DNA of 64,000 nucleotides from Bdellovibrionales bacterium (GTDB lineage: Bacteria; Bdellovibrionota; Bdellovibrionia; Bdellovibrionales; UBA1609): assembly GCA_965203095.1 (NCBI GenBank), contig OZ241877.1:224001-288000 (forward strand), given 5' to 3'. Each line of letters starts with the position of its first letter. The first letter of the stretch is position 1. Shown one piece after another: positions 25,228 through 25,340 of this stretch. Under the pieces are notes generated by a model. The model was not told where the DNA came from, made no database searches, and saw only the letters and a list, made by a program, of their open reading frames with translations. The position numbers and the translations under genes are program-made.

Positions 25228-25307
25228 AAAAAAAATGCCCAAGAAGGCTCTCCGCAGTTTCATTCAGCTTGCACCTTACAAAACTTTAGCTAACCACCTT
25301 AGGGCAA
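25228..25307 (-). ncRNA. Candidate stand-alone hairpin small RNA (~75 nt)
   Basis: Promoter upstream, rod-like fold with GCAA tetraloop and G-U pairs specific to the minus strand, U8 tail. Confidence 0.6.
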
Positions 25308-25312
25308 TATCC

Positions 25313-25340
25313 ACAATACTATAGTCCTGATTTTTGTCAA
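25313..25340 (-). promoter_or_regulatory. sigma70-like promoter of candidate sRNA
   Basis: TTGACA-16-TATTGT; predicted start coincides with the hairpin 5' end. Confidence 0.6.

Follow-up and report, generated by a model that had tools for sequence, protein, structure and literature searches.

A putative hairpin RNA gene family in a Bdellovibrionales genus that apparently lacks the SRP pathway

The window analyzed here, a 64,000-nucleotide stretch of a Bdellovibrionales genome, carries on its minus strand a short intergenic unit that raises the question of whether it is an RNA gene and, if so, of which kind. An original prediction made from the letters had described a stand-alone promoter, hairpin and T8 tract, and had proposed that the product was either a highly diverged SRP RNA or an undescribed small RNA. 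We analyzed this unit in its source genome (G000; 1.80 Mb, 2 contigs, 90% complete) and in the genus to which that genome belongs (g1; 10 genomes, G000 included), seeking copies in relatives by means of DNA and covariance-model searches.

Architecture of the locus

Sequence and fold bear out the predicted succession of promoter, hairpin and T8 tract on the minus strand. The -35 box TTGACA (25335..25340), whose TTGAC is invariant in 11/11 copies of the family described below, is separated by a 16-nt spacer from the -10 box TATTGT (25313..25318; TA..T positions invariant in 10/10 alignment rows), and together the two boxes yield 10/12 consensus matches. Three phased A-tracts (25343..25369, minus strand), which resemble an UP element and may act as one, lie 5' of the -35 box, and all 10 copies in alignment A6 have an A-tract ahead of TTGAC; the original prediction had made no mention of these tracts. 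The distance from the -10 box to the 69-nt hairpin body (25237..25305) is 7 nt. A single A separates the hairpin from the T8 tract (25228..25235), which together with the closing stem forms a predicted intrinsic terminator. Transcription is predicted to start about 7-8 nt 3' of the -10 box, at the first base of the hairpin, and the spacing between the -10 box and the first G is equal in the homologues. A simple terminator scan of the locus returned 0 sites, because here the terminator stem is the entire RNA.

From the outside inwards, the hairpin comprises a closing stem with a bulged U (core CUAAG/CUURG), a middle stem, a 2x2 purine loop, an 8-bp stem, a second 2x2 purine loop (AA/GA), a 3-bp GGU/GCU stem and a GCAA tip. 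The region originally read as a 6x6 internal loop is resolved by RNAfold into a 2x2 loop, 2 bp and another 2x2 loop, and the homologues have a proper stem at this position. The predicted GNRA tetraloop is present in the window copy (GCAA), but it is shared with no other copy, the remaining tips being of the GUCAAA, UUCG, CCCG and CUCG types. The promoter strand folds with -27.4 kcal/mol (z -2.5; 2/200 shuffles equally good), against -9.4 for the opposite strand, and the seven G-U pairs of the window copy form on the RNA strand only, in line with the strand specificity claimed for them. Also as predicted, no ORF of at least 50 aa overlaps the hairpin RNA.

A genome-wide scan for a promoter followed by a closed rod and T7 retrieved 3 matches among 302 promoter-like sites, 2 of which are the window gene and its paralogue, compared to 1 match among 1,552 sites in five locally shuffled genomes. 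Furthermore, the pattern A6+TTGACA-16/17-TAWWRT occurs at only 5 sites in the G000 contigs, two being the hairpin RNA genes, and it is the rarity of this combination of A-tract and promoter that leads us to predict a high RNA output. A retained and duplicated RNA whose promoter looks to be among the strongest in a 1.8-Mb genome probably has some function.

Outside the element, two plus-strand genes flank it. One is yraN (UPF0102; 24895..25221), which is convergent, with 7 nt separating its stop codon from the T tract; the other is a divergent ORF (25509..25958) whose predicted product combines a hydrophobic N-terminus and a weak alpha-CTD domain of RNA polymerase. The original prediction had drawn attention to the latter; it is indeed the divergent neighbor here, but its association with the RNA is incidental, since the gene is single-copy in G000 and lies beside no other RNA copy. 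Between it and the RNA promoter sits one instance (25445-25495) of a dispersed intergenic repeat of ~50 nt with 18 genome copies, also seen in the window at 23210-23252 and 32124-32174.

Distribution and conservation of the RNA family

A blastn search identified a paralogue of the window gene (G000:C1:197146-197266) that is 80% identical and has its own promoter and T tract. The promoter has 42/45 bases in common with the window copy, the flanks are unrelated beyond about -100, and the 24/24 consensus pairs are kept, 7 of them despite a change in one partner and 1 despite changes in both partners. In total, the family encompasses 11 copies (51-100 nt), plus two broken ones, in 6/10 genus genomes. 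Besides the pair in G000, single copies are found in G002, G005 and G008, two and a decayed one in G007, and, in G006, three full copies, a fourth in tandem whose T tract is not clean, and a fifth that is truncated. In this last genome, three RNA units lie within 9 kb (L262 and L382, on G006:C26), two of them before split or decayed AAA-type ATPase genes, and the clustering of copies suggests local segment duplication. Searches of G001, G003 and G004, which are assembled in 100-300 contigs, and of G009, a single contig, revealed no copy. With 4/10 congeners devoid of a detected copy, one of them a single-contig genome, the RNA must be either dispensable or diverged beyond detection.

On a tree inferred from 16 ribosomal-operon proteins (2,913 columns, 15 genomes, root assumed on G033), the carriers are spread over the crown of the genus and also include G008. 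The ribosomal proteins of G008 are merely 70% identical to those of G000, and the RNA unit is hence old. Beyond the genus, a near sequence-only search of 99 other genomes of the family, with strict filters and 32 candidates scored per genome, yielded no copy. Exact promoter-plus-stem patterns, which would overlook copies of the G006 and G008 types, gave 136 examined matches in genome, metagenome and viral collections, of which 4 close as hairpins, all of them known copies; two additional patterns in the viral collection produced 86 matches and no family member, and blastn against phage and plasmid records no copy. Counts for a one-mismatch pattern were at chance level in G001, G003, G004, G009 and G008, and none of the 30/36 matches inspected was a new member. 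Similarly, the 15/18 weak matches inspected for model R2 on G011, G026, G053, G015 and G021 were terminators or noise, and among the 13 weak matches of model R1 outside the genus, the 6 inspected had no RNA-unit architecture. Contigs from four sequencing runs contained no variant within the RNA, and one marine-metagenome contig spans just its 3' 20-30 nt.

The copies fall into three size classes, with rods of 51-55 nt, rods of 70-71 nt (G000) and two-armed forms of 95-100 nt (G006), the G006 form containing a three-way junction. Across them, the A-tract, TTGAC, the -10 box, a start some seven bases further on, the CUAAG/CUURG closing stem and the T tract (T7-9 after the hairpin in 10/11 analyzed copies) are kept; loop tips, length and neighbors are not constant. 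Inner stems and loops, amounting to 30-80 nt, are preserved by compensating changes. Between 65 and 82% of bases are paired, the longest unpaired run is 4-8 nt and few unpaired bases are invariant. In ~6/11 copies there is a purine-rich loop, (R)RA/GA, adjacent to a G-U, G-C step; short forms have one such loop, and each of the two G000 copies has two, in nested arrangement. As exceptions, the lower loop of the window copy reads AA/GC, the loop is closed in G006c, and it is different in G008.

In 11/11 copies the promoter strand folds better; 52 G-U pairs form on these strands, compared to 10 on their complements, and this combined bias in fold and G-U pairs points to an RNA rather than a DNA palindrome. 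Covariation, proposed originally as a check in relatives, gave a mixed outcome. Pairing is kept and the closing stem shows 87.5% of 80 cells paired, with a double change at 4/8 pairs (slid controls, 29-61%), but over the whole RNA the signal is modest, 31-32/500 shuffles of a seven-copy alignment reaching the observed pairing and covariation scores. Given the kinship of the sequences and this weaker whole-RNA result, covariation is supportive of the structure, not proof of it. The closing stem, moreover, looks like that of common terminators, among them the one behind groEL in the genus and many from phages, so that part of the conservation may be terminator constraint alone. Rfam searches of the region and three homologue stretches (E up to 10) and of ten homologue loci (E up to 1) returned only chance matches and one neighboring tRNA, the region itself giving no match. 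A REP/MITE-type repeat was discarded on account of the fold, which is strongly strand-specific, and of the copy number in G000, just 2.

Elsewhere in the genus, the genes beside the RNA, some of them named from translations, are thiolase/ihfA, DNA glycosylase/tolB-like gene, hisS, sufE (G005, G006), an ATPase and a convergent ABC transporter. The neighbors thus vary in both gene and direction (convergent in 2/11 copies), which argues that the unit is not cis-acting. A riboswitch or attenuator was rejected on these same grounds, the neighbors being unrelated and no Rfam aptamer matching, and sufE was dismissed as the ancestral locus, with the RNA upstream of it in 2/8 genus genomes and in 0/13 outside genomes inspected.

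The prediction of an undescribed stand-alone small RNA gene is therefore upheld by the paralogue, the homologues in five congeners, the kept promoter and terminator and the strand-specific pairing. As judged from sequence, the hairpin RNA is a conserved, so far undescribed putative small RNA gene family, confined to one Bdellovibrionales genus, and a search of the literature, mostly without subscription journals, found no account of it. It would bring a new structured RNA family to a lineage with reduced genomes that is otherwise losing genes.

SRP RNA and the loss of the SRP pathway

The other half of the original prediction, a highly diverged SRP RNA, did not hold. The check for a canonical ffs elsewhere in G000 returned no RF00169 match (E up to 10), and neither an Ffh M domain (PF02978) nor an SRP54-type GTPase was found in that genome. 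Across a survey set of 61 genomes (the 10 of the genus and 51 others), an SRP54-type GTPase (PF00448) is present in 0/10 genus genomes vs 48/51 others, and an SRP RNA in 0/10 vs 46/51. Accordingly, ffs, ffh, ftsY and an flhF-type GTPase were not found in any of the 10/10 genus genomes, nor was ffh upstream of rpsP. The 14/14 SRP-bearing relatives checked have ffs just 5' of dnaX. In G000 and 7/7 congeners with dnaX retrieved (a count leaving out two congeners whose retrieved piece lacks dnaX), dnaX is instead preceded, without any RNA in between, by a gene that we take to be murein-transglycosylase-like. Since no SRP genes were found in the genus, the hairpin RNA is not a working SRP RNA.

The comparison with 4.5S SRP RNA (RF00169) leads to the same reading. 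Both are stand-alone rods with internal loops, and the window copy has a GNRA tip; however, the SRP RNAs of the lineage measure 97-100 nt and are located at dnaX, whereas the hairpin RNA is 69 nt long in the window, multi-copy and not at dnaX. It also lacks a conserved tip and the Ffh-binding loop CAGG/AGCA, which is (nearly) invariant in 25 lineage SRP RNAs and occurs in 0/11 copies, extending to the whole family an absence already remarked upon in the original prediction.

The clade has apparently lost the whole SRP pathway, to judge by these gene searches. Such loss is rare, making its clade-wide occurrence here a notable side result. The loss of ffh and ffs has been reported in Parcubacteria (PMC4508563, available text), and the mutual dependence of Ffh, 4.5S RNA and FtsY is described in the available portions of PMC8230904 and PMC6028451; no publication on SRP loss in Bdellovibrionales was found in the literature searched, mostly without subscription journals. 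Three other small genomes (G011, G026 and G053) likewise lack a detected SRP54 GTPase and SRP RNA; two of them, G011 and G026, cluster with the genus on the ribosomal-protein tree, to the exclusion of three SRP-bearing genomes (support 100). YidC is present in the SRP-less genus and ends in a short basic tail. G015 encodes an aberrant SRP RNA (L056:3357-3445), ~450 nt from dnaX, that has kept the Ffh-binding domain and has a different distal stem, possibly representing a stage of SRP decay.

Candidate function and rival explanations

We propose, with a probability of about 0.5, that the almost fully paired ~75-nt RNA, which is not an SRP RNA and is predicted to be abundant, binds a protein and works in trans as a decoy or titrator. 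Its own sigma70-type promoter would drive the predicted large amounts of RNA; polymerase would start on the first base of the closing stem, which would later, with the U tail, terminate the transcript. The product would be a stable rod with protected paired ends, or a two-armed Y in one congener, in which a protein would read the recurrent (R)RA/GA purine loop beside the G-U, G-C step. A kept shape, a variable length and a repeated internal-loop motif together fit a protein-binding module. Candidate partners are three global RNA-binding proteins found in the genome: KhpA (encoded before rimM), an R3H, KhpB-like protein (encoded after yidC) and CsrA (G000:C1:889413-889661), the last present in 10/10 genus genomes. 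In the available text of 10.64898/2026.10.12.757534, KhpA/B are reported to bind RNA globally in the absence of Hfq and ProQ; in the genus, Hfq exceeded the cut-off in 0/10 genomes and ProQ in 0/5.

The unit moves and duplicates together with its promoter, as in the five G006 copies, one of them truncated, and at most copies a co-oriented gene (ihfA, the tolB-like gene, sufE, the ATPase) lies downstream. It might accordingly be a portable promoter-terminator cassette whose transcript is a by-product and which insulates, or meters read-through into, the downstream gene. The likeness of the closing stem to common terminators, which is the main doubt about the protein-binding reading, keeps this idea alive. 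A terminator, however, has no need of 30-80 nt of inner stems and loops maintained by compensating changes, two of the copies lie opposite convergent genes, no common function unites the downstream genes, and there is no leader ahead of the terminator stem for an antiterminator; we consider this explanation rather unlikely. A base-pairing regulator, either a trans-acting small RNA or an antitoxin, opening from its loop onto mRNA with the aid of KhpA/B, would agree with the size and the self-contained promoter and terminator, with the 7 nt between the end of the window copy and the convergent yraN stop, and with the binding of small RNAs by KhpA/B in Hfq-less bacteria (10.64898/2026.10.12.757534, available text). 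Yet 65-82% of its bases are already paired, the tip loops are different in every lineage, and the copies are flanked neither by a toxin-like gene nor by any other conserved partner. Complementarity to 1,451 start regions, furthermore, does not rise above shuffles (best 11-12 nt vs 9-13), and we deem such a regulator improbable; its Hfq- or ProQ-dependent form was rejected, as neither protein was found and there is no conserved single-stranded seed.

A third possibility is that the RNA descends from the apical half of 4.5S SRP RNA, having outlived Ffh/FtsY, left dnaX, lost the Ffh-binding loop and taken up a new job. All copies occur within the clade devoid of SRP genes, and the rod shape and stand-alone expression unit are compatible with such an origin; the 53-nt RNA of G002, in addition, can be aligned by eye over its full length to the apical half of a single lineage SRP RNA, and single pairs reach p 0.01 and 0.005 among 121 comparisons. 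Pairwise scoring against the first 12 of 36 lineage SRP RNAs nonetheless gives a mean z of -0.25 over the 11 copies, with reversed controls no worse, and a profile of all 36 scores the copies at shuffle level (best, 2/60 shuffles as high). The ffs-dnaX locus is without a copy in G000 and in the 7/7 congeners with dnaX, and neither early-branching congeners nor SRP-less sister genera yielded an intermediate form. A relic origin is unlikely, though the alignment by eye and the two low-p pairs leave it some probability. We give equally little credence to a more specific version, in which the SRP apical half, or a newly arisen RNA, was kept after the loss of Ffh/FtsY/ffs as a multi-copy, strongly promoted RNA with a new partner such as KhpA/KhpB and an SRP-independent job in translation or membrane targeting; the khpB-like gene adjoins yidC, and, if true, this would be an instance in nature of an SRP RNA that persisted after its protein was lost. 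Very improbable, finally, is a small-molecule sponge, or orphan aptamer, akin to the merRNA of Bdellovibrio, despite a precedent in the same order (PMC3627812, available text) and the three-way junction of the G006 form: no riboswitch family matched four short stretches at E up to 10, most copies have no junction, being plain rods, and few unpaired bases are invariant.

Known RNAs provide a context for the protein-binding reading. The 6S RNA (RF00013) is likewise a closed rod that would act through protein binding, but the hairpin RNA is less than half as long and has no large central bubble; at 69 nt it is too short for 6S, as originally stated, and G000 encodes a canonical 6S at G000:C1:1146517-1146697, with tmRNA, RNase P RNA and 5S also present elsewhere. 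CsrB/CsrC and RsmY/Z are protein-titrating small RNAs composed of many small hairpins. They share with the hairpin RNA the proposed mode, that of an abundant trans decoy with redundant copies, and CsrA is present in the genus; the hairpin RNA differs in being a single rod without repeated GGA loops. Its copies hold 0-2 GGA each, mostly in stems and none in tip loops, with 2/11 copies having none. CsrA recognizes GGA loops and is active in Bdellovibrio, according to the available text of PMC13443453. The csrA gene is kept throughout the genus, although no FlhF-type GTPase was found, and in most of the genomes it adjoins the mlt-dnaX block. For Bdellovibrio bacteriovorus, eight small RNAs of 98-655 nt and an expressed SRP RNA are reported in the available text of PMC3627812. 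As described in that text, APsRNA1-7 and merRNA resemble the hairpin RNA in being structured intergenic small RNAs of the same order without homologues beyond a narrow lineage; by the same description they are set apart by their length (98-655 nt), attack-phase specificity and, for some, FliA promoters.

Several other identities were tried and discarded. Replacement of 5S rRNA, prompted by the three-way G006 form, is contradicted by a canonical 5S in G000 and 8/9 congeners and by a mean z of -0.63. A Y RNA was rejected in view of the Ro60/TROVE partner (PF05731) not being found in G000. A presumed likeness to the c-di-GMP riboswitch, to k-turn/box C/D and to tetraloop receptors had no Rfam support, and the k-turn bulge is missing. 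From sequence, the hairpin RNA remains an orphan putative small RNA of a narrow lineage, with a function that we infer, and its naturally occurring forms, which measure 51 to 100 nt and have the motif once or twice, offer ready constructs for a partner search.

Two further observations concern rRNA loci. In G002, three weak matches of 84 nt, spaced at a 197-nt period, come after the 5S gene (G002:C1:720704-721408) and are perhaps decayed tandem copies. In G000, the 23S and 5S rRNA genes lie in the window at 32770-35927, far from tRNA-Ala(TGC) and three tandem tRNA-Ile(GAT) genes (G000:C1:1348377 and 1739312-1739573), and the rRNA operon of this genome looks split.
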